Below, in pieces: positions 12,227-58,300 of a DNA stretch of 64,000 nt. Both the position numbers and the translations under genes were made by a program. The notes under the pieces are model-generated. The model saw nothing but the letters and a program-made list of their open reading frames with translations. It had not been told where the DNA came from and did not search any database. The stretch is from assembly GCA_039545335.1 (NCBI GenBank), contig BCIN01000002.1, positions 819,118 through 883,117 on the forward strand. The letters are read 5' to 3'. This stretch comes from Kondoa subrosea (Eukaryota). Each line of letters starts with the position of its first letter. The stretch's first letter is position 1.

Positions 12227-13062
12227 TTATGCTGTATTGGCTGACATCTTGCTTATCCTGCGACTTGACTTTGGACGAGCCTTGCGAGAATTGCCTTCAG
12301 ACATTGTTTCGGCAGGTTCTGCAATTCCAATTGAGCAAGGTCTACGATAATAATAAGATTGAAAGACTCACGATATGAATACTTGACGCGAGAGCCAGCT
12401 GATTTATCCGAAAAGAGCACTGAAGGAGCTGTTCCATCACTTCCTGAATCTTGATACCGAGGATCAAAAAGAAGTTCTTCCTTCTTGCGTCTTGTACTTC
12501 TTGAAGATGAGGACGAGGAAGACTTAGGCTTGCCTTCCAGTCTGTTGCTACCAAACAACAGATCACCATCTGCATCAGCTCCTTGAATCCCTTCCCCGTC
12601 ATCATCTTCGGCTTCGGTGGTAGCTAACGATTCCTCTTCCCATAAAGTCACATCTACAGGAGCAGACTCTTCATCCCTGTAGCTTGCTGCCCTTTTCGCT
12701 CTTCTTCTAGCTTTCCGTTCAGCTTTCCTTCGCGCTGCTTCCTCTTCAGCGTCTATCCGTAAGTCCTCATCTCCTCTATCTTCCCATCGCGATAGATCAA
12801 TGATCCTCGCATCCTCTTCACTAGCATTATCATCCGGCGGCAAAGCTAGTCTAGGTGAAATGCAACCAAAGAAAGTTTTGATCCAAGAAAGTTGAGGAAG
12901 AGGTTTCACTGTCTGTTGTTGCTGAGAATGATGATAGTTTGAATGCAAACTGAGAGCATCATCTTCTGCTATTCGATAGAGATCGGTCTGTGAGTCCAAT
13001 GAAATCCGAGATGTAGAACAGCAAAGAAGTGAGCGAATTCGGTCTGTATTCGAGAATTCCAT
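12227..13062 (-). CDS. Hypothetical low-complexity protein (acidic and Arg/Ser-rich)
   Basis: 269-aa ORF with N-terminal LLCC; a probable intron (gtgagt near 12370 to ...gcag) leads to a last exon ending at TAA 12227-12229. No recognisable domain. Confidence 0.65.
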
Positions 13063-13372
13063 AGAGCTGGCTCGAATGAATTGGTCTATACAGCGGCTGT
13101 TAGAGAAAGATGCCTTGAAAGTCCTCGTCCGAAATCAACAAAACATCGAATTCACGTTGAAAATTCATGAAACGCGTCGAAAGAAGAAACAGGCTCAAAG
13201 ACCGAACGAGATTCATCTGATTGCATGTAGGTCTGCCACAGTAAATCTGAAATCATATTGACAGGAGCGCGCTACCGGCGCAAGTAAAAACAGGAATTAT
13301 CCGTACAAAGTGATAAGCCTGCTCGGGCCCACAATCATCACTCTGACTTCACGAACTTTCACCGGGCTTCAT

Positions 13373-14902
13373 CTTACGTCGCATCCGTATCATAGTCTCG
13401 GATTTCTTGCTCGAAATCTAAAGTCTTCCTCGTTTCCTCATCATTGCCATGATAGATGATCCACCTTGAAGCAAGCTTTATGTTGCGGATGCTTGAGTTC
13501 CTGTTCCGTTGCAGCTTCTGGCTCAGAACGTCGGCGTGCGCCGCCAGTCCTTGAAAGCGCTTTTCGGGCTAACTTAGCCGCTATTTGTTTTCGAGGTGCT
13601 TTGCCTCCGAAGCTTTTTCTCGCTGTGCGTACACGTGCTGCACGTGGTGGTGAAACATATCCAACTAGTCTTCCGTCCACCCATGAGCAAGTTCTCGGCA
13701 CATCGTCCATGCGAGCATAGCACTGGAAAACAGCCAAGTTTCGTAACACTGGTTGCAAGTGAATGAGATATGTATCAGAAATGATCAGAAAGCGGCGAAG
13801 CTAGAGAGATTGTAGGCTGTTGCATTGTTCTACCGCACTTTGTAATTCATCAGTCAAAGCGGATAAAGTAGTCCAGTCTCCTCTTCTGTGACCAGATCCA
13901 CCATCCAAATGCAAGAGCTTCAAGGACGGAGCTAGAGCGCAGATAATTTGGCACTTCAGTGTTTCTACACCTTCTTCATCGAAGTCGATAATCATGAGCT
14001 CGCTGAGTCTAGGACAACTTTGGAAAGCAGTTTGCAGCTCCTTGTATGTTGGTTGATCATCAGACGCAAAGATGGAAGATAGCTCCAAACGGCGTAGTCT
14101 CGGACCGAGAAATCGAGTTAGATCGATTGAAGAAACAGATAGTTGCCAATCCAGAGTCTTCTGAGCTCTTCAACAGGCTGACTGATGGCTGGCAGAAAAC
14201 TACCATATTCTCCTGCTAATCCGAGATATTGCAGCGGTTTCCGCTTGTTTATTGCGTCGATATGGGCCGACATGTCTTCACTCGAGACTTCGGTGAGTGC
14301 TCTTGCTTGTAGACCGACCAGGTTAGGACAGAGCTGAAATCTAAAAACGCCTTTTCGGATCGAAAGCTTCTCAGCAGCAATACATATTGACCTACAGCTG
14401 AGCGATTCGCTCGCTTGTGAAAGCGGATCTATTTGCTGCGATGCGGGTAGTCAGGGAATCCATCTTCCAAGCATCAATAAGCATCGATCCAGTCTCTAGA
14501 ATGCTAGTAAATACTCACATCAATACATTTAACGTAATCACCCAATTCACGGTAACGCTGCTTCTCACTAACCACCTTATGATCTCCCACCAAAGATGCA
14601 CTGGCCAAGGTATCTAGAAACTGTTCGAGGTTCTTTTCGGTTAATCTGACTGTTCTGTACAGGGCTCTTCTGCCAATATCGAGCCACGCCTTGCAGACCA
14701 GAGGAAAAGGTAAACAGTCAGAAGAAGCCATCGGTCCTGCATGGCCTTCGTCCTTGTCCAGCGCATCGAAAGGTTTAAGACATTTGCGGCTTCGATAATT
14801 GTAGCCATCTTCAGCTACTGAGTCGAGTATTGATACCCAGATATCAGTCGGTACACGAGAGGAGAGCGCTTCGGGCAGAGACTCAGAAGCTGGACTTGAC
14901 AT
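13373..14902 (-). pseudogene. Disrupted F-box/LRR(RNI)-like gene with an embedded histone H3-tail-like segment
   Basis: F-box-like RVPTDIWVSIL...LVCKAW...ALYRTVRL and two introns matching those of the paralog at 25398-26774. Lesions relative to the paralog: frameshift near 14146, in-frame TAG at 13801-13803, frameshift near 13478. The TARKSFGGKAPRKQIAAKLARK motif lies at 13561-13626. Confidence 0.8.
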
Positions 14903-15034: not shown

Positions 15035-16709
15035 TTATGCAAGCAAACCCTTGACCCGATCTCTTTCACTCCATGGCTGCTTCTCCCATTCTTTTGCCAG
15101 TTTCCCACTCTTCCCACTCGATTGCAACAACACTTCATCATCCCCTAAGAACGAGCTTCCTTCTTCCGGTAGAACCCAATCTAGACCAGCCAGACTATCA
15201 CTCGGTACTTCTTTCCCTGAACCATTCTTTGCAAGGTAGATTCGCCTTAATGCATCTTCTGCTGCTCGAAATTCTGCCATTTTAATTGATGAACCTAGAC
15301 CTTCGCCTAGTTTGTAATTCGGTCGCGATGAGGTAGATGAGGTGAAGATGCCAACAACGAAGAGAGGTGACATGGAACCTCGACCTGATTCTTTCAGTAG
15401 TCTGCCACATGGCCCATGAGGGAAGATTAGACGGAAATGCGAGAAAAACTTACCTAGCCTGCGCTTGACCTAAGGAATATTTTTGCATAGTTGCACTGAG
15501 AATAGCTTTGGGGTTTTCGAATTTGAGTATTGAAGCTATGTCTGCTTGACGAGAGAAGAAATGTGCTCGAACGAAATTACGAGCTGCTTCAAATCCCTGT
15601 TCGCACCCTTAACGTGTTAGCTGATGTATACAGCCAATCATCAAGAACACGAACAGCTTGTGAGTATATCGCACCGACGAAGGCTCTTGCTGTGCATGCC
15701 ATCGCGTCTTCGAAGGTTTTCCCTTCGCTTTTGTATTCTGATAGACCAGCATCTGGTAACCTTGGTGAAGTATTCTCCTGTAGGCAATCGTGCTCAGAAT
15801 GAGAGTACACTCAATCTGCATCCGAACTCCTCACCTTGCGAGACCATCTCAGTACACCTACACCAGCTCTTCTCCCTTCGTTAACACCTCTATTCGATTT
15901 TCCCTGATTCGAAGCTATTGTTGTCTTCATCCAATGTTTAGGGTCTTCTGCTTCTGGAAAGACTTGATGACTTGCTTGACCAGGTTGTATACCCCATCGT
16001 CTTGCTACATCTGCGAGAGTATTTGGTCCAACATACATTGTGACTGCTGCTTTGGTCACGCTGTGCGTATAGGGTTGGAGATGAGCTCCTGTATTATAGC
16101 CTGAAACAATACCATCACGCACTTGAGAGGTAGATGAGGCCATCGATGAGATATGAACTCTGCAGCTAACATGCCCAGCAATTCATTTCCCACAGAAGCG
16201 AGCGTTTGATTATCGCTCATATTCTGATCTTGATAATGAGTGTATGCAGCATCTTGTGGTCTGGGTTTTGTGTCATCCAGCTCATCCTTGTTCTCAAGCA
16301 CTTCCTCCCAAAACGAAGGGCAAGTACAGCATTGCTCTACTAAAGCCAAGTTCTCTTTCATTGATTCAGGCAGGTTCATTCGATTTGCTAGTGCAGCATA
16401 AGAAGCCAAGGCTGGTCTTGTGCCCAATGAGTAGAAGATTGCAAGCGTCTCTTGAGTGTAACGGAAGCCTTTCTTTGGCTTAACGAGCGGTCGATCATGT
16501 ATTATAGAAGCTCCCTTTGACTTTGTAGGTGTTGATATAGGTTCTGGTCGAGGTTTAGCTTCCACAAGACTTTCTTCAGGCGAAGTTGCGAAATTCCGTC
16601 GAAGATTGGCTTTTTTGCGATGCTGCGTTGCAGAAGGTCGACCATGCTTAGCTCGAGTGATTGTACTGAGTAGCTCCTCAAAGTAACCCCGGCATAGCTG
16701 AGAATTCAT
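15035..16709 (-). CDS. MRPL3: Mitochondrial large-subunit ribosomal protein mL44 (RNase III-like plus dsRBD)
   Basis: NQTLASVGNELLGMLAAEFISHRWPHLP, AMACTARAFVGAIY, PLFVVGIF...KLGEGLGSSIKMAEFRAAEDALRRIYL; Arg-rich N-terminus. Confidence 0.88.
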
Positions 16710-21207: not shown

Positions 21208-24200
21208 ATGCCTGCTTGCGTTGAAGTCGATACAAACGATTCTCAATTTTCTACACTCTATCCACACATCAGCGGTCTAGTAGCCCTTTCCTACTCCCCT
21301 GATGGGCGGTAAGTCGCTTTCGAGTTGCCCCACGCTTATTTCTGACGCGTTTGTCCTTCTAGCACTCTCTTCACCGGTGGATCTGATTCTTTCATTCGAG
21401 CGCACAATGTCGACAATCCAGCCGAAGATTCTACCTTGATCGAATACTTTGAAGGAGATGTGACTTCTCTAGATTGTTCTTTCGACTCTCTCGTAGCTTG
21501 CGATACAGAGGGTCAAACTGCGTTGTTTGGTTTGGAAGATCAGCACGCTTTCAAGGCTCTTCTGACAAGAGCAGATCCTGGTTCTGCAGCGAGATGTGTG
21601 AGATTTGGTGTAGGAGGAAGGAAGATTGCTGTTGCGACAGATGAACTGACTGTCAAAGTCATTGATGTTCGAACACCTACCGAGAACATTCAGCTACTCG
21701 AAGGTCATACCAAAGCCGTAAAAGCCGTGAGCTGGAACCCGGATGGTTCTCTTCTCACCACGAGTTCTTGCGACGGATCACTTCGCGTTTGGGATATGGC
21801 TTCGTCGCAAACAGATGTCCCTTGCATCAAAGTACTTGATGGTCTTTTCCCTTCGTCGCAACCAAGGTCAGTAGTTGTTAAATGAAAGAGATCTACCTGA
21901 ACAGTAAAATAGCGCAATGCTTCCATATTGTGAAGCACATTGGCATCCAAACGGGAAACATTTCGCTGTCGCTACTTCTTCTCATCGTAAGCAGCTACAG
22001 ACAGAAGTGGCCGTATGTACTCATGAAATAACAGAAATCGCCTTGTACGCTAAGGACTCTTGCACTCGCTCTTCTGCCTTCACTCAAGATGGTCACAACT
22101 CTGTGCGTGTCTCTTCGCAGAATCGGATTCCAGATGACTTATTTGCTACATTTAGGATATCTCTGCCCTTGCTTGGTCACCGAATGGACATTATCTCGCT
22201 TCAGCGGGGACAAACAACACAGTTTTGATATGGGATATGGCTACAATGTCTCCAATCTACCGGACCAAACTCTCTTCCATGTCTGAAGAACCTTCTACTA
22301 TCACCGCTTTAGCATGGAGAACTGCAGATGGCAATTCTCTAAGCATAGCAGATTCAAGCGGAAGAGTAACTCGATGGGATAATGCCATTCCATCCGATTC
22401 TGGTCGACCTCATCCAAGTGAAGGCACTTTATACGGTGTTGCTCGACCGGCAGGTCAACAGCAAGCTCCTAGACCTCAACCTAGAGTCGAGAAAGAAGTT
22501 GCAAAGGGCAAAGGAAAAGCAATAGCCGAAATAGATATTTTCGGTCAAGAGGACGAAGATGATGATGGTTGGATCGATGATGATATGAATGGAGCGTACA
22601 AAGATGGACCTGCTGGCGGACTTGAAGCACCCGAAGCTGAAGAAGAAGGAGACGATGAATTACCTCCGCCATTATTTGGAAACGATGTGCGATCAAAAGG
22701 TTTGGCTTCGTTAAATGTCGCTAGTCATGGTAAGTCAGATCTGTTGATATTGACGACTATGCTGACTGTCAGTAGCTATTGCCGGTCAACCTGCATTTCA
22801 ACCTGGATCTACGCCGTTCAAGGATAAGCGAAGATATCTAGGTTAGATCTTTCATCCCGGTACAAACGCTTACTGATGGACTTGCAGCCTTCAATGATAT
22901 CGGCGTAATTCACATTGTGGACCGAGACTCGCACAACCTTGTGTCTGTGGAATTTCACGATAGATCAGCGCATCAAGGCTATGGTTTCGATGACAATTTC
23001 AAGTTCGAAATGGCCTGTTTGGGTAAGTCGTGGTACAGTTGACAATTATATCACGACTGACGAGCTTTCTAAGGCGAACGAGGCGTACTTTATGCCTGCC
23101 CTGCTCGAGGCGATTTGGCTTCAGTCATCAACTACCGTCCATACAATACTTGGGCTCAAGCAGCAGATTGGCAGCATGAACTTCCAGCAGGCGAATCTGT
23201 TACTGCAATCGGTTTAGGCGGTGTTTCTGCTTTCGATAGCGAAGATCTGTCTCCTGCTCTCGGAACAGGCTGCATTGTAGCAGCTACTTCTGCAGGCTAC
23301 CTTCGCTTCTTCGGAGGCAGCGGTCTACAAACTCATCTCATCGATCTAGGTGAAGAAGTAGTGAGTTTGGCGGTTGGAAAAGAATGGGTCTTTGTGGTGC
23401 ATCGTGCTTCCGCTTCTACTTCGGATGGTCAGTTCAATGCATTGACTGCCTCTTACTAGTCTAACATCCGTATCAGGTCGTCAAAACTTAAGCTATACCA
23501 TCATTGATGCGGACACATTCGAATTTGTTCAGCATGGCCAACTGCCGCTTATGAAGAGGATTACCTTAACATGGATTGGTTTCACCAGCGATGAGGTACA
23601 TCGATTCTGTTTGTCTGTTTCAGCTGCTAACCCGGCTATCTAGATTCCTGCTCTCTACAAGTCTAACGGCGTTCTATCATTACTTTCGAGAGCACGTAGA
23701 CCAGGCCAAGCTCGTTGGGTCGCCGCACTAGACTGCAATACATTAGCAAGAAGGGAAGGCAAACAAGAGTCTTATTGGCCCGTTGGAGTATCTTCAAAAG
23801 AGATGAATTGCGTTATCTTGAAGGTCAGCGATTTGCTCTTGTTGCGGTCATTGCTCATGATACGTTGACAGGGCGAGGAGAAACATCCTTTCTTCCCTAC
23901 TCCCTTACTTCAGGAATTGCCTCTTCAATTGCCAACGCTCAATCTGGAAGGCCAGCAAGGAACACTTGAAGAGAGGTAAGCTGTACTCTCTAGTCTCTAT
24001 GAACTGCGCTCAAAAATCTGAGGATAGCTACCTTCGCGACTCGCTTGTCTCTGGTCATATCAAAGACGGATCTCACCCAGATGATTATTCTGCTCAGACA
24101 AGAATAACTAAAGCTAGTCTGGACATGGATAAGCAACTCCTCATTCTCACTCAAACAGCATGCAAAGCAGAGAAATTGGAACAAGCACTCGAAGCTGCTC

Positions 24201-25276
24201 GTTTAATGAGCCAACCCCAATCCCTCGATGCGGCTATCAAATTAGCAGCCTTCTTCCATTTGCCAGGTCTACAGGAGCGGATAGGTCTCATCAAAGAAGC
24301 TCGAACTGGCGAAACTGCTGTCGATCGAGAGCGAAGAGAGAGCAAATGGGGCCATTTGGTCGATAACCGTACAATTGTCGATTCCAGCTTACAAGTACAA
24401 GATTACACTTCGAATCCTAGAAGGAATGGTGCTTCTACTTCTGCTTCGCTCAGCAAACCGCTTGAATCTGGTTTCCAGAAACGAAGTCTCGGTGATGGCT
24501 CAGCACTTGGGTCGCGACCTACAGTAGCTGCTACCAAGTTATCAAAACGCACTGATTCTGGTCATGGCTCTTCGGAACATGATGTTGACTATGAAGCACC
24601 TTCAGCCATACAAGAAGACGAGTCAATGCAGGACTTGGAAGGAGAGCTTGAAGAAGAGACGCAAGAAGACAATGTCCTTTTCAAGCAGAACGATATGCCA
24701 GCACCGCCTGTAGCCAGACCCAAAGCACATAATCCTTTCGCAAAAACTGCTTTAGCTGTTTCAACACCTCCAACAAGTAGCAACCCTTTTGCCCGCAAAG
24801 GTACAGCTAGTGGGAAAGCAGCGGACTTGAAACGGTCTGAAAGTTTCTTCAATCGAGTAGAAGGGACCGCTTCAACTTCAAAAGAGAAGGGTGAGTCAAT
24901 TGTAACTTTGCTTGACAATCTTCTGATTGATTGACCAGGCAAAGGGAAGAAGGCAGCTGGCAAAGATGGTCCTCGTCAATCTACTCTGTTCGGTCTTCCA
25001 CCTCCAGCAGAAGACAAGGAAAAGAAAGCTACGAAAGGCAAGAAACGAAAGTCAGCAGCTGGCGAACCGGCAGTTGAAGAGACTCAAGACACGCAGAAAA
25101 GTCTAGCATCTTTCCTAGGCAAAGAGAAAGCTCCTCTTGAGGATGAGAGTCAAGAGGAAACGCAACCTGCCGAAGAAGAAGAAGAGCAAAGCAGTAAAAG
25201 GCAGCGGATAGCAACTCCCGAAGAAACTCAGGAAGAGATTGCTGAGACGCCTATGGAAGTAGTCGCCGAGGCTTAA
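21208..25276 (+). CDS. CTF4: Replisome hub Ctf4/Mcl1/SepB (AND-1): WD40 plus SepB domain
   Basis: N-terminal WD40 repeats (GHTKAVKAVSWNPDGSLLTTSSCDGSLRVWD), QPAFQPGSTP, VEFHD, ATSAGYLRFF, YWPVGV and a helical region LDKQLL...ACK; stop TAA 25274-25276. Confidence 0.92.
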
Positions 25277-25397: not shown

Positions 25398-26774
25398 ATG
25401 ACTTCCGACTCAGCGCGCTTGCCCTTGGAAATCGAGTACATTACGTATATCTTAGTCACGCATGCAAAGAAACAATTAGGCCCCCATCATGGAAATGTGC
25501 ATCTTGGCCTGCTCAGAGAACAATAACCAATCTCCAGCTATTGCCAGAAACGATGTTTTTCCTGATGCTGATCGCTACTGGGGCACAACACTCAATTATC
25601 ATTCTCATCCTTGCTTTCATCTGCCTCACATCAGCAAGAGTCTGCGTCAAGCTGGAGAAAGAGCCCTCTATGCTACAGTGAGAATCAAGGCGGATGGTCT
25701 CGCAAAGTTGTTAGCTAGTCTGATGGCGCGGCCGAGTTTGTGTGAGTATGTGAAGTGCATCGATGTGAGTTCAACTTTCGATCGATAGAGATCATCTGAC
25801 CGACAAACGAATCAAGCTGGGCAAAGGTTACGGAACGGAAAGAGGAGACCTGGAAGGTATTGACGCGGCGTCAATACAGCAGCTGTAAGCGGGGCCTGAT
25901 TGTCGCAGAGGAAGTCAATACTGACTTTTAGTGTAGACTCAATCTATGTGTCAATTTGAAAGGCTTGAAGACCGCTAATCTGCCAGAAGCGGTCATGCTC
26001 GATTTTGGCACCCAATTGAGTCATTTGGACGATCGCAATTCTCTCTCCTACCTGGCCCTTTCCCACAATCATGGCGATTTCTTGCCGACTGTATCTCGAA
26101 CTCCTCAACGCTTCAGTGGTCTGAAGAGAATGTGGCTAGATGGGCTACAATTACGTTCAACAGATCTCCTACCATACATAGGACCTAATCTGACGCAACT
26201 CAGTCCGAGCTATCTCAAGCATAACGACCAGGCAATTACTATGCAAGAAGCTGAAGTTCTTGCATCAAGATGTCCTAATTTAGTGGAACTTCGATATATT
26301 CAGCTCGAACTAACGGCTAGAAGAAGACCCTCAGAAGAGCTCGCATGCAATCTGATCAATGCCTTCAGTCCACAATTACGCACTTTGCACCTTGACGGAG
26401 CTGCAGAAGTCAATTGCAAATGGAACCGGTACTCTGAACTATCATTTCATTTGCGTTCAGCCATCGGGAACTGCAGCGTCTTGAAGTCTCTTTATCTGCG
26501 TCGTCTAAAGTTCAGAGATTACGATTATCTGGGTGACACGATTCAGCATACACTGGAGTCCCTCACTGTCATTCAATGTTACGTGGCTCATTCGATCCAA
26601 TCCCCCAAAAGGCGCAACAGTCTAGTTTTGACCCCAATAAAGGCAATTGAACACCCTGCATGCCAAAAGTTAACGCAGAAATGGCTCCTTTATACAAATC
26701 AAATGAAAGATAGCCAACACCATTACGACTCGGAAATTTTTCAGGATGAAGCTTTTTCGGGCGGCGAAGATTGA
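25398..26774 (+). CDS. F-box/LRR-like protein, paralog of the 13.4-14.9 kb pseudogene; first-exon structure unresolved
   Basis: RLPLEI...RALYATVRI...YVKCID|intron|68-nt exon|intron|LCVNLKGL...LKRMWL...CPNLVEL...LRTLHLDG...AIGNCSVLKSLYLRR...QCY...HP...KWLLY. Confidence 0.7.
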
Positions 26775-44496: not shown

Positions 44497-46186
44497 ATGG
44501 ATATCGTTGTTGACACTCAAACTCACTCTTCGAAGGCACCTTCTCTCGATGAAATGATAGAGGAGATAGCTAGATCAACAGCTGCTCCTACTTCTAGCAT
44601 TGTAATCACTGGTCCTTCGGTTCCAGTCACTTTAGCTACTTCCAGTCCATCTTTGGCTCTTCCTTTGTCCATACCCACTCACAAACACGATGAACATATT
44701 CATTCGCCTGTTCCTCGGTCTCCTAGCTCTCAAACTGTACAGAACCTGGAGAAGGCAGTAGAAGACCAAACCAAAGTTGGTGAACCGGTTAGCAATAGCA
44801 ATGCGATTCTGTGCGACTCTCCCGAAGAAGCACTCGAACGTATCTTGGCTGTCTCTTTGCCCACTACTGACAAGATCGACTCTGATATGCTGTAAGCTTT
44901 TCCTTGCTGTTTGCAATGTACCCGCGGAGCTGATTATTTTCCTCAGAACAACTCCTTTCATCGGGCAACGCTTCAAAAGCAGAGAAGAATTCAAGCAGAC
45001 TTGTCAATCTTACGCTACTGCTTTCTCTGCTGCCAGTCCGGACTCGAGATTTCATTTCGCGACTCGTACTTCTTCCGCTGATCGCTGGCTGTATGTTCAA
45101 TAGTCTATTTACACGTTATGCGCTGATGATCTCACTAGTGTCTTCTCTTGTAATCATCATGTCAAGGGCTGTCCAGTATTAGTCCGAGTTGAGCGAGATC
45201 GTACTGCAAATGACTGGTGAGCTTACTCATTTTGAAATCCTTTGTTCTTGAGTGCGCTCAAACATTGAACAGGGTCATAACGGCTCATCAATATTCTCAC
45301 AAACATCCTCACGGATCAAGTGCATCTTACATCCCACCTCGAGCAGCTGATGCGACTTCTATTTCTCGACCTTCATCAGCAATCAGCAACAAGTCCAGTC
45401 GGAAGTTTACCGTCGTTCGTAAACGCGAGAAGTATGAGGATGAAGATTTCGTCAACGACGACGAAGAAGCTTCGATCGCTTATCAACCTTATGCTCGACC
45501 AAGATCGCGCACCAATGGTCATGTTCAGAAACGGCGTCATTCTTCTGATGGACAAGCTCGTAGTAAGTGAGACCTGACCATGTGAGAGGTTTCGATTCTA
45601 ACACATCTTTACAGCTCGGATGATCATTAAGCACAAACGATCCTTCGAAATCTCAGCAGCTGGTCCAGTAAACAGAGATCGAAACACAATGCAAGACTCT
45701 CTGCTTCCGTTCAATACTCGTGAACAAGGAAGCAACCTTCAGCATACTTATTCTTCCACCCGACGATCCTCCTTCGATTCTGATCATCTTCGTCTGCCTA
45801 GTCCAAGTGGCAGTTGTACTTCAGCTTCATCTACAAGTGTAATGAGCTATCGCTCTCGTGCTCTTTCCATTTCTTCCGCTGGAAGTGAGCAAGCCGCTGC
45901 GCAGATTGAAATACCAAACGGCACACTCGAGCAATATCTGGCCGCTGTCCATCCTCTGTTGGGAGACGAAGAGCTTCTTGAAGCGTTCAAAGTATGTTGC
46001 TTCGTGCTCTGAGTCACAAGTTGTCGCTGATATGAAGGACAGCACGCAGGCATCGAAGACGTCGCAACTCTTCTTTCTCTTGAGCAACCCGAACTCGTTT
46101 GCGTAGTAGATAGCTTTTCAGATGTGGCTGTCAAACCTTTGCAAAAGCTTCTGATCAAGAAGCGAATAACTCGCGCTTTGAGATGA
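44497..46186 (+). CDS. Protein with a WRKY/GCM1/MULE-type zinc-finger domain and a C-terminal SAM-like domain
   Basis: IGQRFKSREEFKQTCQSYA...FHF..., C-x6-C-x23-H-x-H across two introns; C-terminus LEQYL...LLEAFKHAGIEDVATLLSLEQPEL...KPLQKLLIKKRI. Confidence 0.7.
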
Positions 46187-46326: not shown

Positions 46327-49300
46327 TTAAGCAAACTGAAAGGCAAAGAGATCAGCTCTGAAAAGACAACGAGCCAAACTGCAGAACTTACACCGAAGCC
46401 AGCAGTCTCCGTGATGGCTAATAATAACATTCTACGCAAGTCTTCATAAGTTGGATATGTAGGCAAATCCAGTCTAAGAGGCAAAAGAATCAGCAGTGCT
46501 CTGGAATAAAATTGGCGTAAATTGACATACTGATTGAAACACGAGTGCGCTGAAGGAAGCGCGCCTGCGCTATGGGCGGCGACAATGGTGAACTTTGTGT
46601 TCCCACTGACACCTTTAGAAACCACGAAGGAGTTAGCCGAATTCTTGAGAAAATGAACATATTACATACCTTGGAGAGCGCCGAAACCCTCTAGCGGAAC
46701 ACGACTTGACCCAGTGACGAATTGGAGCAACTTCGCCCTCTCTTCTTGACTGAATGATCGTACAGCACGCCAGAACCAAACTACAGGCGAACTTGACGCC
46801 GAATATCCTTGAAGGTCGGTATTTGCCCGCCATTCGTCGACATCGATATCAGGCAAGCTACCAAATGTGCATAAGTATTGGATTGGACTAGAACGATAGA
46901 TCTGTGCTTACCCTGAGATGAGCAGCTGGAGTTCCGATGCATTGAAGATAGACACGAGTTCTGTGGGAACAATAGAAGTGAAGCCAGAAACGAAGGCTTG
47001 AGCCTGCTCCTTGATGGAGTTTGTTAGTCGATGCTTGACGAGTAGTTCCACGTATTCGCGCTTGTTTTCGTCATTAACAGGCAGATCACGTCCTCCGGGC
47101 TTAAGATCAATGACTTTGATGACACCCCACTCATCCGCTTCCACACTGAAAGTCAATTCCAGCACACCGTCCTGATCAAGGATCAGAATTATGTCACCAC
47201 TGCATGTGCAAAGCGCTTACAATCGAATTGTCAAGCATCCACTTCAGACTGCGAAAGCTGTCCGGATCAACAGACTCTAGATCGCTAAGATCGACAGGAA
47301 CACCTAGTAGATGTTTGTAGAAGGCCTTTGTGAAGTATGCTTCCAGTAGACGTCCATCATATACAGACTTGCCGATGATTCGACCAACGAAAGTAAAGAA
47401 TGGAAGATGATCAGGCTGGAAACAATCAGTTTAGTCTATAGCTATAAACACAAAACTCACGTTGACATAAGATTGAGGATTAGGCTGATACACTAGCTGA
47501 TCTGCCGATGAGGGTTGGAAAAGAGCGTAGCCAGGGTTGAAAATGGATCTTGCTAGTATCGAATACCATTCTCTAGTAACACCTCCCGCATCCACACCCT
47601 CTTCATCGTAGACTACATTAGATTTATTAGGTCCGAACTGGATTCTAATTGCACAATGAAGCACTCACATCGCACCGAAAGCTTTCCATACTTGAGTTGC
47701 TCTGGTGTCCGCCTTGCTGGATTCAAACTCTGGAAAGAGTCTTCAAATACATACTGCCTGCGGACGTTGACTGGTAAAGTTCCAAAGTGATCACGACTTG
47801 TACGCTTGTGCAGAGCTTGGTTGAAATAGTTGCGCTTGTTTTCAAATTCGAGTACTGCAGGGTTGTGAACGAGAATAGAGAAAGATCCGCCCATCAAAGA
47901 GGGATTCTGTCGCACCATCGCATTCAACAGCTTGCGATGTTGTCGAGTGAATGTAAAGAATAGACTTTCGTCGCTTCCCTTGTTGCTGCTAGGAGACAAG
48001 ACAGTAAGGGCACTGCTGGACGCAGGCGGTTTGGCTTCATGTTTGGAGAGAACCATGAAAGCTTCGATCAGAGGCAGAAGAACGGTACCAATGTGGGTAA
48101 GCTCCTTTTGTTCGACCATAACGAGGCACGCTCCAAGAGTGTCCCAAAGAGAAGAGAAGTTGAAAGCTGCGTAAATTTCTTGAACTCGCCGATCAGCTTC
48201 TGCTGCTTCTTCAGGTTTGTCCTTCTTGTTGGCTGATTTGCTTGAATGAATATAATCAATCGTTTTTAGCACCCGCAACAGTTTAGCTTGAAGAGATGAA
48301 GCTGGCGATAATTTGGCCATAACTGTTCCAGGGATTTCGCCTGAAGTGCTCAAAGCAGCATGTAGCTGTTTGAGATCTGGAAGAAGGTTCTGAGACAGGC
48401 TTTGAGCTCGAGCTGAAAGTTCAGTAGAAATGACTTCGCGAGCTCCTGGCAAATGTGAAAGATGTTGAATAAGGTTAAGGGTTTGTTGAAATGTTTTGCT
48501 TGACACTTCTTTCGCATCCAGAATATTAACGACAGACTTGAGCGCGCTGGTAGGGATACTAGGTGGATCTTCTCGCAGACGCTTTTGCAAGTCTTCTTCT
48601 TCGGATGGCTCTTCCGTCGGCTTCACTTCACTCTTCGGAGCACTTCCTTCAGTGTTAGAAGCTTCAACAGGCGCCATTTCCGAATCGAGAGCTGGAACAG
48701 CAGGTGGATCTGAATTTTGTGGTGTATTAGTTGATGTATCAACGGACGCCATTTGCGGTGGTGCTGATACAGGCAAAGGTGTCGAAAGAATGTGCAGAGG
48801 TCGTGTGATAGTTGCCAACAAGCTGGTCAAAGAGTCCATGACACCAGGAATGCCGAGAAGCATGGGTCTTTCGAGCAGACCCAGCAAAATGACCAGAGGC
48901 AGAACGGAAGTTGGAGGCAAAGCTTTCTCTTTGCCCTTTGTGCTGGCTTTTCCTTTCGATTTGCGGCTGAGATGACCTAGAGATTCTTGTTCTGTCAAGA
49001 AATAATGAGCCACGGACTCATTGCCCTGAACAAGGTGAGCGAAAGCTTCCAGACATCTTTGGGCAACAAGATTTGGAGCACCAGGAGGACCTTCAGTAAA
49101 GCCGGGAAGTTGTATCGATGGAGTGGGTTGTGCAGAGCCTCCACGCTGACGAGCGGAAGCAGGTGTTGTTGCTGCAGTCTTTGGCGTTCCAGCCTTGCTC
49201 GCTTTGGCCGAAACTTGCGTGAAGGTTTTGTCAGCTGAAGATGAGTCCTTCGTGCCATCTTGAAGAATCGTGAGCAGAAAATTGATGATTTCCATTCTCG

Positions 49301-52300
49301 ATTTGGTATGATCGCAAAGATTCAGTAGAACAGTTTGTAATACGCCCTTCTCGAGTTGCTGAGGGAAGAAGAGAAGCCGCACCAGAGTGGCTATAGATGA
49401 CTTGTCGAGGAGCTGTACGGCATGTCGAGGTGTAATCTTTTTCGGAAGAGGCGCACCGGCCCCGAAGAGAGCCGCAAAAGCTTCAGTTGCTTCCATTCCT
49501 CTTCCACTCCCAGGCAAGCGACGGGGACCGCGATTTCTTGCCTGTTGCTGCAGGGCATCTACTTCCGCAAGAAGATTGGGTGGAAGTGTTGCCAGGAAGT
49601 CGCGACCACCATCTTGCAATTGCTGTATCAGAACCTCTCTTCGAAGCTGAGGGTCATGTTCAAGAGTCGCAAGGAAAGTAGCTGGATCCATCTCGGCTGG
49701 GCCAGGTGCAGGTACTTCGCCAGCTTGGATAGCAGCTTGACGTTGACGCTCTCTCTGTTGCCTCTGTTGTTCCAAAGTCTCTTGAAGCATGACTTCAGCT
49801 CGGATGTCAGGCGGAAGAGCATCCAAAAATTCGGCAGAAATTGATGACGAGGAAGCGGCAGGCGCAGTCGAGGGAGTTGAATCATCAGTATTGGTAGCTG
49901 GAGTGGTCTCTTGTGGCGGTGCTGCACGACGGATGTCACGGTAATGCTGATTGATGATTTCTTCCCGCATTTCATCTGGCAGGGCTTCCAAGAATTCTGG
50001 ATCGATACCAGTATCGGTGATATCTACTGTATGGCCGTGAATTTCAACAGTAACTCGAGTTGGACCGGAAGACTCGGCATCTTCGGATTGCGATGCTGAA
50101 GTTGAAGCTTGGTCTGTATCCATAGCTTGAGCATTCTCCGTCGAAGGAACAGGTACTGCAGCAGCGTTACCACCTGCCAAGCTACGTGCTATGGCCATCA
50201 TTGCTTCTAGCGGATCTTCAGGCATAGAAGCAGGTTCGGCAGCTTGAGTTGCAGCTCGTGCTGCCTCTTCTTTAGCTAGACGCTTCTCTTCCTCCCGCTT
50301 TGTTTTAGCAGCAGCAGCTTCAGCCTCTAGGGTTTCTTTGGCCTTCGCTTCAGCTTCTTTAGCAGCTTGTTGTTCAGCTTCGGCCTTTTTGGCATCCTCT
50401 ATTTCTTTTGCTTCCCGAGAAGACTTCTTTGCTTGAGGTAGCAAAGCATTGACTAGATGCGCTTGTAGTGCTGTACAGCGTTCGGTAGTTGGGACACAAG
50501 CCTGGAAAGCCCGAGCTTCCTGATCCCAGCGTAGATGAGTAGATGCAGGATTCATGGCCGAAGACATAGGTCGAGACGATGAGCCAGCCGCTCGAGAACC
50601 AGATCCAGGTCTTCTCATGAGCATGTCTTCGCCATGATGATGATGGTGATGATGATGATGGGGCAAAGCTCCGGGTGGAATGGCAAACATCGGTTGATGA
50701 CCCTCGCGACCGACGCGCTGCATGATACCTTGCTGGCCCATTGCATTGCCAAACATTTGCTCAATGAGCTGGACCATATTGTCACCTAATTGATCGCCAA
50801 TCGCATGTAGAAGAGGAGCGAAGGGACCGGTAATATGATGCGGTCGACGTCTCTCGGTGTGATGATTGTTAACTTCGGGATTCGATGTGTCGACGAGCAA
50901 GCGATGTGGACCAACGTCTCGTACGCCTTGACCAGGTCCTCCAGCAACGAGAATGGCTCTAGGTTCACGACCTCTAGGACCACCTAAGTAGAAGGCTCAG
51001 ATAGAGAAATCATGCATTGTGAGTCTCGGTCACTGACCTATAGTTTCTTGATCCAATGCTATTTGACCAGGTTGCTGATGGCCAAACACAATGTTTGGGT
51101 CAAATTCGAGCATCTCTTCTTCCTCTTCTTCGGCATAATCATCTTCATCAGCTTCGGGATAGCCAAGTTGGGCATCCAACGCGTCATTCGCGTTTCCTGG
51201 CAAGGCTTGGCCAGTGCCTTCGGCTTCAGCCTCTTCTCTTTCTCTTTGAGCTAAGTTCATGACTTCTTGGGCCATTCTTGCATTATGTACTGCATCAAGA
51301 TCTTCTTCGTCGTCGGATAGATCCTGATCTTGATCTGGATCCTCGTCGTCATCTTGCACTAAAGCTTCGAACAGCGATGTCACTTGATTGCCATGAGAAT
51401 GATCGTCGTCTTCGTCGTCCATCATTCCCATATCATCTTCCTCATCGGTGATGATTTCGCCATCAATCAAGTCATTGATATCAATATCATCCTGCAAAGC
51501 GTTTGTCTAGATATTGCAAGTGAAATAGACCAACAAGCTCACCTGGTCATCAATGTCGGCTTGCGAATCGCCTGCATCCGAACGATCATCGTCCATTTCC
51601 TCATCAGGATTACTATGCCGTTCTTCTCCATCGTCATCAGAATCTGGTAAGGGATCAGATCGACAAGCAAAGAGGAAGGAAGTGCATACCATCGTCACTT
51701 AGGTCGCTGACATCACTTGGCACTATCTCAGCAGGGCCTTCCATGTCAACGAAATCGTCCCTGAAAAAATGCAATATGAAGGCACAATAAGCGAAAGAAA
51801 AAGTGAACTGACTCGTCAACGTCCATCCCATTGTCGTCGTCATATCCTTCGCTATCTTCGGCATTGGCACCTTCTAATTCACCCTCATACATGCCTAGAG
51901 CTGAACTGCGATAAAGATCAGGACTGTCACCGATTTCTGCTTGTCGACCAGCGCCCATGTCATCGTCCATATCGGAGCCATTCGATGGATCACTTTGGTC
52001 ATCATCATCGTCTTCACCCTCGCTGGCGCTGAGTACGTCTATTTCTATGCCTCCAAGTTGTTTGATTTCTGCTTTGCTGCCAACACGTTTGACGGCCTTG
52101 GAAAGCATTTGTAAAGGGCGCAGTATCTTATTGATGAGAGATTTGACAGAAGGGAAATTGAGGTCGGCATCGGCGAGCGCACTTGTCAGAAGGCTAGCAA
52201 AGTTCTTCTCGACCATCAATTTAGCCATCTGTTCGTACATTTCGTCCGAGAACTTGGATCGGCGTTGTTGACTTGCAGATGAGGGTGGAGAAAGCAAGCG

Positions 52301-55300
52301 ATAACAAAGATCAGATAGAGAACCAAGTTTTGCATATCGCTGAGCAGTAGGTTCGCTCGATGCGAGAACTTCTTTGATAGCTTTGGCAATCGCGTCGAGA
52401 ACGCCACGGCGAACGGAAGCATAGCTTTCAGCTTCAGCGGAACCATCGACGACCTTGTTGCTAGCTTCAGAGCAAATTGCTGTTACCACCAAAGCCGCCC
52501 ATTCTGAAAGACGGAGTGGTTTGATCGCGGCTGGAAGTTTGTCTTGCATAAGAGCGCCCAGTGGGATGACTTCGTGCAGCAAGAAAGGCAAAAAAGCAAT
52601 GAGAGTTGATCTTTTGTTCGTCGGCAATTTCTGATGGGCAATTGCTTCAAGAGAAACTTTGCAAGATAGATATGAGTACGCCAATTCAGACATGCAGGCC
52701 ATCAGGAATCGGCAGTAAGTAAGCTCTTTGAGATTAGCTTCTCCTTGAGCAAGGCAAGCTGCCAGAAGAGCGCCTTCGGGTTTGTCCGCTGGTTTAGCGA
52801 AAGAAGACGGAACTGAAAGCAGCTGTGTCACCAAGTGCTTGAGCAGATTTTCAACAATGCTGCCACTGGGTGATGAGGCCGCAGTACTAATGTCATCAAT
52901 TTGCATGTCGTTGGTCTTGTTGGCGACTTCCACTGTCTCGCTAGTACCTTGATCCAAGGCAGCACCGGCAGCTTGGATTGGCACAGGTGTTACAGCGGAA
53001 GCGATGATTGGTGAAGTAGTCGAAACTACACTGAGAGCTGAAGCTGAAGTGTTTTGCAATTTGCAAGTGTCTTGAGTAACTTCAACAAAGATTCGTGGAT
53101 CGCGCAAAGCAGCAGACTTCATTGCTTGAACGAAGGCATTGATGTCGCCATTGCGCCCGCGTTGACGGACGAAGTAATCTTGGATTGCGCTAGTCATAAT
53201 ACCCTTGAGCGTAGAAGGCGATTCCACGATGTGTCGCAGGATGAGAATGACAAATTCTTGACTATTTTCACCAGATATCCTAGCATCGGCTGAGATGAGA
53301 AGCGAAAGTCCATCTGCTTGACAAAAGGATTGAGCCATCTCGGGCTGTTTGATCAGCAAGACAAGGATACGTTGAGCTGCGGACAATTGATCATCAGAAG
53401 CGCTTTGTGTTTTCAGAACGTGCAGAGCTAGGTTGAGAGCAGTTGAGCGGGCTTCTTCCAGACCTGGGCCTTGCAAAACAGTTGAAGTATCTAAAACAGC
53501 AGTTTCTTCGATGGCTGCATCAACAGATTGATCTCGAGGGACTTCGGAGACCGAAATGAGATTTTCGACTACCAATAGAAGAGGAGCAGTCCATGCTGAG
53601 ATGTCTTTGGCAGAACTTGATATACCTGCAGCCAGGAATTTCTGCAAGACTTCTGTAATTGCCAAAAGTCGACTACGAACGCGCTGACGGAAGGCCACAT
53701 CGCTTGTCAAGAGGGCCAACAAGCGAAGTTGAGCGGCAACAGCGTTCTCGTCAGTAGCCATGTCTCCTTCCGACAGGCTCTTGAGCAGTAGAGGAATCAA
53801 TGCAACTTGTGGTGTATCGATAGGACTGTCATTCTCAAGAGTACGTGAAGCATCTCGAACATCGAAGATCATTTGATCGTAAATCGAAAGAAGTCCCAAG
53901 GCGGTTTGCAAGAAATCGGTTTTGAGAGCCGAACGAGCCTCATCCAAGGCTTTCTTGATATCTTCCAACTTCTGTTCACTTGATTGTACTTGACTCTCTG
54001 TCGTTGAAGATTCAGCTGTGGTTTGATTAGAAGATTCGGCCATTTCCGCATCAGCGACGGCTGGAGTTGCGGCTCCGCTGGCTGCTTCGTCTCCATCTTC
54101 TTGAACATTTGCGCCTGTTTGCGGCACAGCTGAAGGGGGTTGCGAAATGAGATAGTCTGTAGCTGCTGCCATATTATTACCATATCGCCGAAGCGCTTGC
54201 ACCACAGCCGGACGGGAGAAACCCATGTCAACCAGCTGACGGATACGCTCCTCGGACAGGACTATGCGCCCTCGATCCCTTTGCACCGGAGTAGGAAGAG
54301 AAGAGATGCCACTGTCTGCTGTTTCAAAGTCGGCCGCCAGTATGCTGGTCAGCGTTCTGAAGACCGAGCGCACAACGTTGGGAGGAGCTCGACGGCAGAC
54401 AGGATTGATCCAAGTATCTTTGACTACGTCGAAGATGGCGGCCCTAGCGCGAATGATGTAGGCCGGTAGATCGATTGACTCCGAATTGGACGAATTGTTT
54501 AGCTCGCTGCGATACGATGGATTCAATTCTGGTAGCTTGCGAGCTGCAACTTTCTCCAGAAGATCCAGGGCAATTCGCATCCCGCCAAAAGCTTGCAGAA
54601 CACGCAGCTTCTTTTCCGTCTCAGCAGGATCTGTAGGTGAAGCCAGATCCGCGTGGTTGCCCTCGCTCTCCTGAGCGAAGTTGAAGAATTGGCGATAGAT
54701 GCCGATTAAAGCGGTCAGACCACCAGCTTCTTCAAATTTGACAGCGAGCATAGCTTGAGGATTGGCAGCCCATCGCTCTACAGGGAACATCAGACGAGCC
54801 GGGAGGACAGTAAGTTTCAAGCCTACCTTTGCCGCAAAGGGTAGTCACAGTCTTGATCATGACAATAGCAAAAGCTGCATCAGTAACGGATGCAGCTACT
54901 TCCAAACTTCAGTATGCTCGCCGTAAGCTGCAGGAGCCAGACTTACCACAATCCTTGATATCGAGATAGCCAGCGAAGATAGCACCAAATTTCTTCGCAG
55001 TCAAAGCGGCTTGTTGACGATGTTGAGTATCAGGCGCGCGACGCGGAGGAGGGCGGCCAATTATTCCTAAAAGAGTAGATCAGCTTGCAATACTGCTACT
55101 TTTCCCGAGACACGGACCAGCAAACAGGTTCTGAATTGCTGCCCCAATTTGACTAATCAAATCCTTTAAGGACCGAACATTCTTCTCGACCAGTGTCTTA
55201 TCTGTATCGCAATCGACTTGCTGAGCTTCTTCAAAGACATTATCGACTTGTCTTGGCGGGAAACGACCAACAGAACGAGGTAGAACAGGCGAAGGCTGAC

Positions 55301-58300
55301 CACCAGGATTGACTAGAGCTTGAGTTTGCTCTTGACCAGATAAAGCAGGACTGTCACCAGATAGGCTCTTGAGCAAAATATTTTCCTTCAGACTTGATCG
55401 ATGCAAGAGTCCAAGGTCCGCTAAGGTTTCGGTAGCATTCTCGATCGAGCTTCCTGGGACGGTACCATTGAGGGCTTGCAAAGCTGAAGTGATTACACCT
55501 CGACTGTGAGAGTAAGTGACTTGAGGTATAACTTGCTCCAGAAGTCCGACGAAAGTGCGCAGAACGATAAGTTCTCGGAGCGAGCCATTCGATTTCTCGA
55601 CATCTTCGGTCTCTGTGCACGCCGAATCAGTGAATGAACATGAGAGAAATATTCCTGCTGACCTTTAGGGCTGATCAAGCTCTCAAAGCGGGTAGTTGAT
55701 CCAGTTGAAGGTGAATCCCAAGCGTATTTGGTAGTGTTGAGAATTGATCTTGTTCGAGACAGTAACACAGCTAGTACTGGAACTGGCGTAATTTCACCCA
55801 TTATACGAAACAGAGCAGAAACAGCCAAGGAATGAGGCGAATCATGAAAATGCGCAGGAATGCAAGGTAAAGAGAGGATATCGCAAAGGACTTCGAGACC
55901 AGATCCTTTAGCGAATTCCTTAGCGTGTGTTGCATTTTGTAGGATGCCTTCGAGAAATCGAGCGAAAACGTCGATGTAGCCAAGTACTTTGTTGTCCTTG
56001 TCTCGCTCTTTATCCATCTTGTCTTTGTTTGGAGGGTCAGCCGCACCTTCGTTTGCAGAAGCTGTAGTAATTTCAAGCGGTCCAGGTGGTGCAGTGGACA
56101 TATCGACATCCGTCCGAGCTTCAAGTGCTGGGGCACTGACGGTTGTGCTTGATTTCTTAACTGTAACGAACTTGCCTTTGGCAACACTTGGAGGTTCATA
56201 ATCCTTGCCAAGCTCAATGATTCTTGCCAGAGTAGTATTGACAGCGGTCATGACAGAAGTCTTGAGAGTAGGGTGATGGCGAATGAGTTCATCAATAGCA
56301 GCACCAAACATCGACGCGTTTTCTCGTTCACCAAGTAGATTGGCGTGGCTTTCCAAGGTGAAGAGGTTGAAGAGTTTTGGAATGACTGGAGTCGCATTGA
56401 ACTGATCACGACCGGTATCGTTCAGGCAAAGTGCACCGATGGCATTGGGGATGGCGGCGAAGACATCAAAAGAAGCATCAATGTCTTCCTCCACACTCTT
56501 GTAGAAGACTTCAGGTAAGCCTTGCTCTTGTAGAACCGTCAAACTGGTCGGTTCATTATGAACAAAAGTAGTCATGACGCCCAAAGCAAGAGCGTAGATT
56601 TGGGGACCGAAGATAGTACGGTACTGCATGATAACTTTGATGCTTGCAGGTAAACTTGAGTCAATCAAATTCCTCAGGCCTTCTCCTTGAGTGCCCGAAA
56701 TTGACATTGTTCGAGTAAGGGAACGAAGTAGAGCTTTGAGCAGAGTCGACTCGTTGTAAGCCAAACTCTTCTTGCTGTTCTCCTCTCCAATCGCTTGATC
56801 CACCAAACTCTTGATCCTGTCCACGAAGACCGCAATTCCACCAGCTGCCAGGAATGCATTTGCAGCAGAAGTGTAGCCATAACTGCTGGTATCTAGGAAA
56901 CCAACAGTACGTGTGACTACAGGCGAGTACTCTTGAGTACTAGTCTTGATCAGTTCGACCATTAGAGGGACGATACCGGCACCAACAAGACCGTTACTAC
57001 CAGCAACGTGTGATTGTACAGTTGTAAGAAGCAGGAAAAGAGCGTCTAGATATTCTGTTGAGATCTTGGTCGTGCTTTTGCTTGAAAGATCGGAGACGAG
57101 TTTTCGAACGATGCCCATTAAAATACCGTGATTGACAGAGACATTGATGGCGCTGAAGACTTCTGTGAGACGAGAGCGAGTCTTGCAGAGACCTTCGAGT
57201 GCGTAGAGTGCAGATGCACGAACCGAAAGCGGAATCGCATCTTGTTCTGATGCGCCAGAATGAATTTGGACCAATTCCGCGATCTTGACAATAAGATCTG
57301 GTTCGTAGATGAAAAGTCGACTTGTAAGGCTTGAGTCAGAGGCACCAGGAGCCAGAACTGCCAAGGAGAGAAGACGAATGACGAGCAGCCTTCTTCTATC
57401 GGCCGGTGAACGCAGAGCTTGCGCAATACGAATCTTGTGGAACAAAGCCAAACGATTAGTAGGAGCTATTTGATGTTGTTCTGATACATCAGCGTATATA
57501 TCAGTGGCTGACGAGCGTTCTAATGTAAGTTTGTCGATTTGTACGTTGACCAGACCCTCGAAGGTTTGTTTCGATTGAGCTGGAGCTGAAGTCGTAACGA
57601 CAGAAAGCTTTCCTCTGCTTGATCCTACTGACGGAGTAGCTACTGGGCCCGTTGTAGCGGCCGATGGAGCGCTTTGGTCAATTTGATGATAGTACTGAAA
57701 ATTGACTTGTTGCGCTTCTGGTGGAATAATTGTAGATTCGCGAGCCAAATCAGTCATATGAAGACCATGTTCACGAGCATTCCATGATTGCGATAATTGC
57801 ATTAAGCGATCAGTCGCTGCTGCTTCAGTTTTGCGATAGAGTTGTGCTGGCCGTAGTGCCAGGCGTAGTGTCGCTTCCAGGACATCAAGATCTTGAGTGA
57901 GGTATAAGTCAGCGATGCGCTATCATCTCATACCGTCAGCTGTACTCTTCCCTGATAATCTCAAAGGCGTACATCGTAAGACTGATAGATCTTCTTGTTC
58001 GTAGCGTGCTCGAGCAATAATTTGGTGAAGCTCAAGACAGCGATGACCAGAGACTTGGTCTTTGGAGTGAATTCATTCATTTGAATGTCCCCAGAAGACA
58101 TTTGATAGTCTCGACAGACAGTTTCGAGAATGGCATCGAAGCGATTCAAGACTTTGATCCAATATTGCAAGTCTGTACGTGGCCATGTGTACTCTTTAAT
58201 GGATGTGAGGAGACCGGTGAGTTCGTGGTCTGAAGCTGCTTCTAGCTTTGTAATGAAATTGGACACCTCGGGGTTCTGCCAGTTTGAAACAAGTTGGTGA

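Follow-up and report, generated by a model that had tools for sequence, protein, structure and literature searches.

Histone mimics are found in proteins such as influenza NS1, with the motif ARSK, and G9a, with the motif ARKT. An ARKS mimic is described for SARS-CoV-2 ORF8 (bioRxiv 10.1101/2021.11.10.468057); SETDB1 (bioRxiv 10.1101/2025.01.21.634156) and NOP16 (bioRxiv 10.1101/2023.06.13.544862) belong to the same histone-mimic literature, and histone mimicry has been reviewed (PMC6028506). Such mimics are motifs of about 4–8 residues that are taken as convergent, are expressed and have had their partners shown. Here, a 29-residue stretch resembling the N-terminal tail of histone H3 was analysed, which lies within a broken gene for a leucine-rich repeat (LRR) protein in Kondoa subrosea. 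The window, meaning the whole stretch of DNA under analysis, comprises 64,000 nucleotides (NCBI GenBank assembly GCA_039545335.1, contig BCIN01000002.1, positions 819,118 to 883,117 of the forward strand); coordinates count from its first letter, and strands are given as + or −.

A first-pass annotation, made from the letters of the window alone, had pointed out the H3-like peptide and proposed that it could act as a bait in an adaptor of an SCF (Skp1–cullin–F-box) ubiquitin ligase. Our own reading, held tentatively and somewhat short of probable, is that a gene which later died had captured an H3 fragment in frame, and that the stretch is now a relic and not a working decoy.

The H3-like stretch and its match to histone H3

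Translation of 13531-13638 (−) gave exactly ARVRTARKSFGGKAPRKQIAAKLARKALSRTGGARR, the peptide that had been read there before, and this peptide sits within a 119-codon open frame at 13441-13800 (−). Its core at 13540-13626 (−) is the equivalent of H3 T6-G34 and comprises 29 codons, 21–22 of them identical, with no gaps. The core (TARKS...TGG) was compared with 11 distinct H3 tail variants, namely those among the H3 proteins matched in this analysis: the best nine were identical at 21–22 of 29 positions, in line with the ungapped 21/29 counted in the first-pass annotation, one at 20/29 and one at 12/29. The residues named there were likewise all correct, with the equivalents of K9, S10, K14, K18, K23 and K27 retained, T11 changed to F, S28 to A and K36/K37 to R/R. 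The blocks TARKS and GGKAPRKQ are unbroken, and the second ARK motif reads LARKA.

A phmmer search of the PDB with the 119-residue frame returned 138 distinct sequences at E≤1 (best E 1.1e-7). Each of the best 60 of these 138 was an H3-type histone; H3/CENP-A chimeras were among them, as was an entry under the name Cse4, and the alignments to PDB H3 chains began at H3 residue 5–7. Smith-Waterman alignment of the linker that contains the stretch with H3 1-59 scored 113, compared with 28.5 ± 5.3 for the shuffled linker, and none of 2000 shuffles reached 113. When whole H3 was searched against the window with tblastn, the sole site at E<1 was residues 6-69 at 13629-13444 (E 4e-10); as the window holds no second H3-like part below E=1, no histone fold follows the tail, which is what had been claimed. 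Pfam gave no family for the 119-residue frame at E≤1, so there is no Pfam histone match. Judged by its sequence, the core within 13531-13638 is a genuine H3-derived tail in a non-histone gene, with a likeness far beyond chance.

The limits of the H3-derived part are less sharp than its centre. Ahead of the T6 equivalent the H3 likeness is unconvincing, and PPRAARVR, just upstream of the core, resembles by eye PRHAAPIR of P0003 and P0007, two relatives of the host protein; because PPRAARVR is family-like, the 5' edge of the H3-derived part was placed at about T6. Downstream, a weak H3 continuation to about Q55 with a two-residue gap is possible at 13483-13539 (−), consisting of ARR plus RSEPEAATEQELKHPQ, into which the HMMER and tblastn alignments extend. 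Identity in this possible continuation is 4 of 19 aligned positions, compared with 21/29 in the core, and the score of RSEPEAATEQELKHPQ aligned with H3 RYRPGTVALREIRRYQ was reached by 69 of 5000 shuffles in colinear registers. A second TARKS pentapeptide (in AGTLQTARKS) was noticed in another frame at 44896-44925 (−), where no H3-like sequence comes after it, and was taken as a chance match.

Host gene, lesions and linker

The host gene is read on the minus strand in two exons. Exon 1 (14519-14902, −) is an open frame of 128 codons from ATG 14902-14900 and encodes the N-terminal region, which is F-box-like and has a loop inserted. Intron 1 (14436-14518, −), predicted from the sequence, has a GTGAGT donor, a CTGAC branch at 14454-14450 and a CAG acceptor. 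The broken exon 2 (13374-14435, −) encodes LRR repeats, then a variable linker in which the H3-like insert lies, and at the C-terminus the motifs W..Y / FEQEI. The C-terminal two-thirds of the protein match five proteins from public assemblies (P0003, P0004, P0007, P0013 and P0015; E 3e-15 to 4e-6), as well as segment 25932-26774 of a diverged paralog in the same window. This paralog (25398-26774, +) is 36% identical over the LRR part and has a short linker without H3 similarity; its intron at 25767-25931 has the same position (after ...KCID), with GTGAGT, ACTGAC and TTTTAG. Over the LRR part, the identity of the target to family members is 28–40%.

All three lesions of the gene lie at points where the relatives read through. 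The first is a one-base frameshift at 14140-14150 (−), near 14145, at which ...LRRLWIGN resumes in another frame as QLSVSSIDLTRFLGP; the original frame terminates at TAA 14120-14118, and the relatives are uninterrupted here, for example with LRRLWVGDVVLLPGNLESYIGS. The second is an in-frame TAG at 13801-13803 (−), at the position of the conserved Tyr of L.SLYLRR in the paralog and four of the five relatives (His in P0004). The third is a second frameshift zone at 13462-13490 (−), whose exact point is ambiguous (after HPQ or after ACF): the tail-carrying frame terminates at TGA 13443-13441, and the family C-terminal motif (RWIIYHGNDEETRKTLDFEQEIRDYDTDAT; RWIIYHGND...FEQEI) runs on in another frame to TAA 13376-13374. 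Aligned with QKLTQKWLLYTNQMK of the paralog, this shifted C-terminal frame gave a score reached by 1 of 500 shuffles.

Logan contigs from two runs of the same sample span the whole gene with no differences and no gaps, at word depths of 142 and 54. Since both read-set assemblies are identical, the lesions are no slips of the assembly of the window; the two runs represent one sample, and their contigs are not independent of the source of the window, which may be these runs themselves. In the present genome, the host gene is thus a pseudogene with two frameshifts and one in-frame TAG, as broken as the first-pass annotation had described it. Because the first two lesions are upstream of the tail, the tail cannot be translated from the start codon of the gene.

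Two ways of reading the stretch as something other than part of this protein are very far from credible. It could be intronic, in that a GT-AG pair from 13632 (GTACGC) to 13476 (AAAG) would excise it and restore the downstream frame, or it could be a small open reading frame of its own, for which an ATG is present (ATG 13710 to TGA 13441, 89 codons). An intron spanning the stretch was rejected after inspection of 83 frame-restoring GT-AG pairs, none of which has a CTRAY branch motif, whereas the two clear introns of the gene pair use GTGAGT, CTGAC and YAG. An intron would moreover leave the open H3-like frame unexplained, and under either version the other two lesions persist.

As to the nature of the host protein, strands and helices alternate regularly in the repeats modelled by AlphaFold2 (AF2) for P0004 and for the target read-through, at a predicted local distance difference test score (pLDDT) of 75–93. 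Foldseek with the P0004 model gave 54 PDB matches at E≤0.001, and those listed are LRR proteins: the top match is TIR1 (2p1q_B, E 1.1e-5), while Skp2 (7b5l_T) ranks 12th and an LRR-F-box ligase from a plant (7sa1_B) ranks 34th. The template modelling scores (TM-scores) are just 0.3–0.4, and generic LRR proteins score similarly. On these models, the host protein contains an LRR solenoid. No Pfam family reaches its curated cut-off for the host protein family. LRR_At5g56370 matched P0015 with E 2.4e-4 and 21.3 bits (cut-off 27), and F-box-like, in tests that concern PF00646 / PF12937, reached 13 bits (E 0.089, cut-off 24.3) over profile positions 20-46 of 47, which is the second half. The top ESM Atlas cluster, to be taken as a lead, was F-box (score 0.94), with 157 shared features, under the guide value of 170. 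The host gene is an LRR gene, probably of the F-box type. The F-box/LRR-like identity given to it earlier is therefore plausible: its LRR part is demonstrated by AF2 and Foldseek, and its F-box membership, weakly supported, is unproven.

In the paralog, the N-terminal F-box-like helix (MTSDSARLPLEIEYITYIL, from ATG 25398) does not share its reading frame with the remainder of the first exon, which could begin at ATG 25489; by eye no GT-AG intron of fitting length was seen in 25398-25788 (+). The paralog may also be damaged, or may be without a full F-box.

Between QC(Y/F), which is conserved, and C.W..Y / FE.EI at the C-terminus, no two family members have the same linker, and its length runs from about 31 to about 85 residues (counted by hand from the alignment of the five relatives and the paralog). 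The pLDDT of the AF2 models is below 50 in the linker of P0004 (residues 246-322) and 26–40 in that of the target read-through (residues 156-242), and the H3-like core falls within this hypervariable, low-confidence segment of the target; going by these models, the H3-like motifs lie in a predicted disordered, accessible linker. The first-pass annotation had measured 75 residues between a QCY and an HP motif, compared with 23 in the paralog. The spacing is correct, and HP as an anchor is no better than chance: out of 500 shuffles, 83 reached the score of the 16-mer ending in HPQ when it was aligned with the paralog linker, and 344 out of 500 when it was aligned with P0013, so that HP was rejected as a family anchor.

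No H3 likeness was found in the six other linkers (five relatives and the paralog), whose scores were reached by 289 to 1788 of 2000 shuffles; for the paralog this chance-level result bears out the earlier statement. Family-wide H3 likeness of the linker, suggested by WARKG and RRRDGRKRG, was rejected on the same scores. These results also concern the idea that a basic linker drifted, or was selected, to an H3-like sequence without descent from H3. It is true that the family linkers are basic, that the alignment places WARKG in one relative at a similar position and that known histone mimics are convergent short motifs. Set against 29 colinear residues with identity runs of 5 and 8, an E-value of about 1e-7 in the PDB, single-copy H3 matches below 1e-3 in a library of 1.84 billion representatives and a score that no shuffle reached, with the six other linkers at chance level, convergence or chance is exceedingly improbable.

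Relatives, timing and competing explanations

The search for other proteins combining the family with the tail covered public protein libraries. Among the 1.84 billion representatives, 50 proteins were found at E≤1e-3: five are the family members, without the tail; 44 have an H3 tail without the LRR part of the family (24 of these also show a histone fold); and one, P0024, has neither by the same test. The combination of family and H3 tail in one protein thus occurs in none of the 50 library matches. Word-indexed searches yielded nothing at E≤0.01 from 574 candidates among longer proteins for the 119-residue frame, no relatives from 3031 candidates for the paralog exon and, from 7774 candidates for the family profile, P0004 itself as the sole match. 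A metagenome scan with the single protein returned 34 loci, all confined to query residues 171-242 (the tail and the following part), and these are presumably ordinary H3 genes carrying GKAPRKQI. The literature search turned up no paper describing an H3 tail in a protein of the F-box or LRR type.

Nine gene models of 135–843 residues (P0005, P0006, P0008-P0012, P0014 and P0016) have two H3 tail matches each, and in seven of the nine there is also antisense read-through or sequence like that of H4, H2A or H1. These models seem to result from the fusion of neighbouring genes in histone clusters during gene prediction. P0005, P0006, P0008, P0009, P0011, P0012, P0014 and P0016 were rejected as embedded tails because whole H3 copies lie inside them.

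The age of the insert was judged from its divergence. The core is at least 11 nucleotide changes away from any codons encoding a matched H3 tail, or about 0.17 per non-synonymous site by hand estimate. In a simulation of neutral substitution over 444 codons at that divergence, a mean of 8.4 new stops arose, and the probability of one stop or fewer was 0.001; the gene has one. At 1–2% divergence the same simulation gave 0.6–1.2 stops. The simulation covers substitutions, and the two frameshifts of the gene are outside its model. Assuming a canonical H3 donor, one stop where 8.4 were expected means that most of the divergence of the tail arose while the frame was maintained. The GC content at third codon positions (GC3) of the core equals the background (0.379, compared with 0.389 for the window), which fits long residence. 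In the family tree the target has the longest terminal branch (1.9, median 0.92), with all 12 invariant family columns kept. Mutation of the repeat-induced point mutation (RIP) type was set aside as a cause of the divergence, as several replacements need transversions (by eye). Taken together, the substitution pattern suggests that the capture, an unusual event, probably predates the death of the gene.

Under the tentative reading of a captured fragment, some 87 bases of the coding sequence of the H3 N-terminal tail, or perhaps as many as about 150, would have been copied in frame from an H3 gene or an H3 mRNA, probably by templated break repair or retro-insertion. The landing site would have been the hypervariable, basic, disordered linker that, in this lineage-specific F-box-like/LRR gene, follows the LRR solenoid and precedes the C-terminal motif. 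Such a linker may tolerate an insert, and the chimeric gene could have been kept open long afterwards, until two frameshifts and a nonsense mutation recently inactivated it. The tail would now be inert in the present genome, where a ribosome starting at the ATG would meet TAA 14120-14118 well before it reached the tail.

Several observations weigh against this scenario. At the edges, no sign of capture was detected, be it an A-run, a poly-A tract or a clean duplication of the target site. All eight basic residues of the H3 core are kept, whereas 8 of the 21 others are changed (p = 0.047), and the core is much better preserved than the continuation (21/29 and 4/19 identical, p = 0.0009), if the H3 similarity truly reaches Q55. 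Such retention gives a weak hint of selection on the core rather than mere tolerance, weak because the linkers of this family are basic in any case and because the continuation might have an origin other than H3. The timing argument also presupposes a canonical H3 donor. Finally, the second frameshift either coincides with the 3' end of the H3-similar zone or lies no more than about 25 bases from it. It could mark the junction of the insertion, which would then itself have disabled the gene.

This last point leads to a different history, which we regard as rather unlikely: an H3 fragment, from T6 possibly to about Q55, was inserted by break repair as filler DNA into a dying gene, its out-of-frame 3' junction being the second frameshift, and the tail was never in a working protein. 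The H3 similarity may reach HPQ (the 69 of 5000 shuffles given above), where the frame change can be read, and HP has no significance as a family anchor. With the insert removed, the target linker would have about 31–33 residues (hand count), near the 31 of the paralog and the 33 of P0015. At the 5' edge of the H3-like stretch there is a tandem 9-nucleotide duplication (13632-13649, −), which contains CACGTG and encodes PPR|AAR; its link to the insertion event is a guess. An imperfect 16-nucleotide direct repeat also surrounds the insert (13460-13475 / 13676-13691, 216 nucleotides apart). It was rejected as a target-site duplication, being 75% identical and having its downstream copy within family-native sequence (KLASRW). 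Both the repeat and the duplication could be repair scars or chance.

Insertion into an already dying gene is difficult to square with the divergence of the tail, given that it is at least 11 nucleotide changes from every matched H3 tail and that neutral drift predicts about eight stops where one is seen (P = 0.001). A divergent donor would therefore be needed, and none closer than canonical H3 appeared among the 1.84 billion representatives. The tail-carrying frame also reads ...KACF, resembling the CFW motif of P0003 and P0007, so that native sequence would flank the insert in the same frame on both sides.

The opposite possibility is that the tail was put to use. A selected histone-tail decoy, that is an SCF-type adaptor whose linker displayed a copy of H3(6-34) as a lure or trap for writers, readers or importers of the H3 tail, either before its inactivation or still in other strains, is in our judgement unlikely. 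The open frame was kept long after capture, and the retention of all eight basic residues, K9, K14, K18, K23 and K27 among them, would be expected of a decoy, as would ARKS at K9 and ARKA at K27, the whole TARKS and GGKAPRKQ blocks and the better preservation of the core than of its possible continuation. The insert is in a linker predicted to be disordered and accessible, and the LRR fold matches include the F-box proteins TIR1 and Skp2. On the other side, the F-box assignment is under the curated threshold, two of the three lesions are upstream of the tail, the basic residues may merely mirror the basic make-up of the family linkers, and the tail is internal, without a free A1 end and K4.

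The bait proposed in the first-pass annotation may be weighed on the same grounds. As far as the data reach, no intact homologue carries the tail, and the proposal goes unsupported because the tail is absent from all five relatives, from the paralog and, in the setting of this family, from all 50 library matches; a bait function in an SCF adaptor is possible. Its fullest form, in which selection kept every Lys/Arg of the T6-G34 copy and the adaptor brought H3K9/K14/K27 writers, readers or H3 importins to the ubiquitin ligase as a pseudo-substrate or decoy, a role that lasted until a short time ago or persists in sister species or other strains, appears quite unlikely.

Neighbouring genes and comparison with known systems

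Just downstream of the broken gene, a 293-codon open frame (12253-13134, −) contains acidic/basic low-complexity runs (EEEAARRKAERKARRRAKR, Ser runs) and matches no Pfam family. The broken gene is flanked by this frame and, on its other side, by an open frame at 15035-15469. Further genes in the window are of an ordinary housekeeping kind: a class II tRNA synthetase fragment (457-1347, +), a Ctf4/WDHD1-like gene with WD40 plus Ctf4_C (22156-24934, +), and a very large Tom1/HUWE1-like ubiquitin ligase present as three long frames with DUF908, DUF913, UBA and UBM (47613-57919, −).

In its present state, as one genome and one dead gene, the locus is a curiosity of gene-fragment capture and no working system. 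The presence of 29 colinear H3-derived residues in an unrelated protein would nonetheless indicate that a gene can take up a complete tail segment and maintain it in frame over a long period. If an intact copy exists, it would serve as a natural experiment for learning what is drawn to an H3 tail outside its normal setting; if the decoy explanation were true, the protein would be a cellular histone mimic that arose by exon capture and not by convergence.

With the canonical H3 tail the stretch shares the ungapped alignment over T6-G34 (21–22/29), both ARK(S/A) motifs and K9, K14, K18, K23 and K27. It differs in being internal, without a histone fold, a free N-terminus or K4, and in having the codon use of the local background. 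The host shares with F-box/LRR adaptors of SCF ligases (TIR1, Skp2, FBXL type) the LRR solenoid and a weakly F-box-like N-terminal region, whereas its small family is below all Pfam cut-offs, has TM-scores of 0.3–0.4 and is known from five assemblies.

A closer parallel to the tail itself is P0020 (CAG7786926.1) of the springtail Allacma fusca, a protein of 299 residues with three H3-tail-like copies (at about 1-35, 122-160 and 205-245) in which blastp finds no histone fold. Both are non-histone proteins with H3-tail copies and no fold. P0020 is, however, an animal protein without LRR whose three copies are separated by acidic Ser/Glu spacers, and its first copy, identical to the target core at 12 of 29 positions, is a poorer match to it than canonical H3. 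The short histone mimics have in common with the target an H3-like ARKS motif in a disordered part of a non-histone protein. Unlike those few-residue motifs, the target has at least 29 colinear residues in a broken gene, for which descent from an H3 gene would be the simplest origin.

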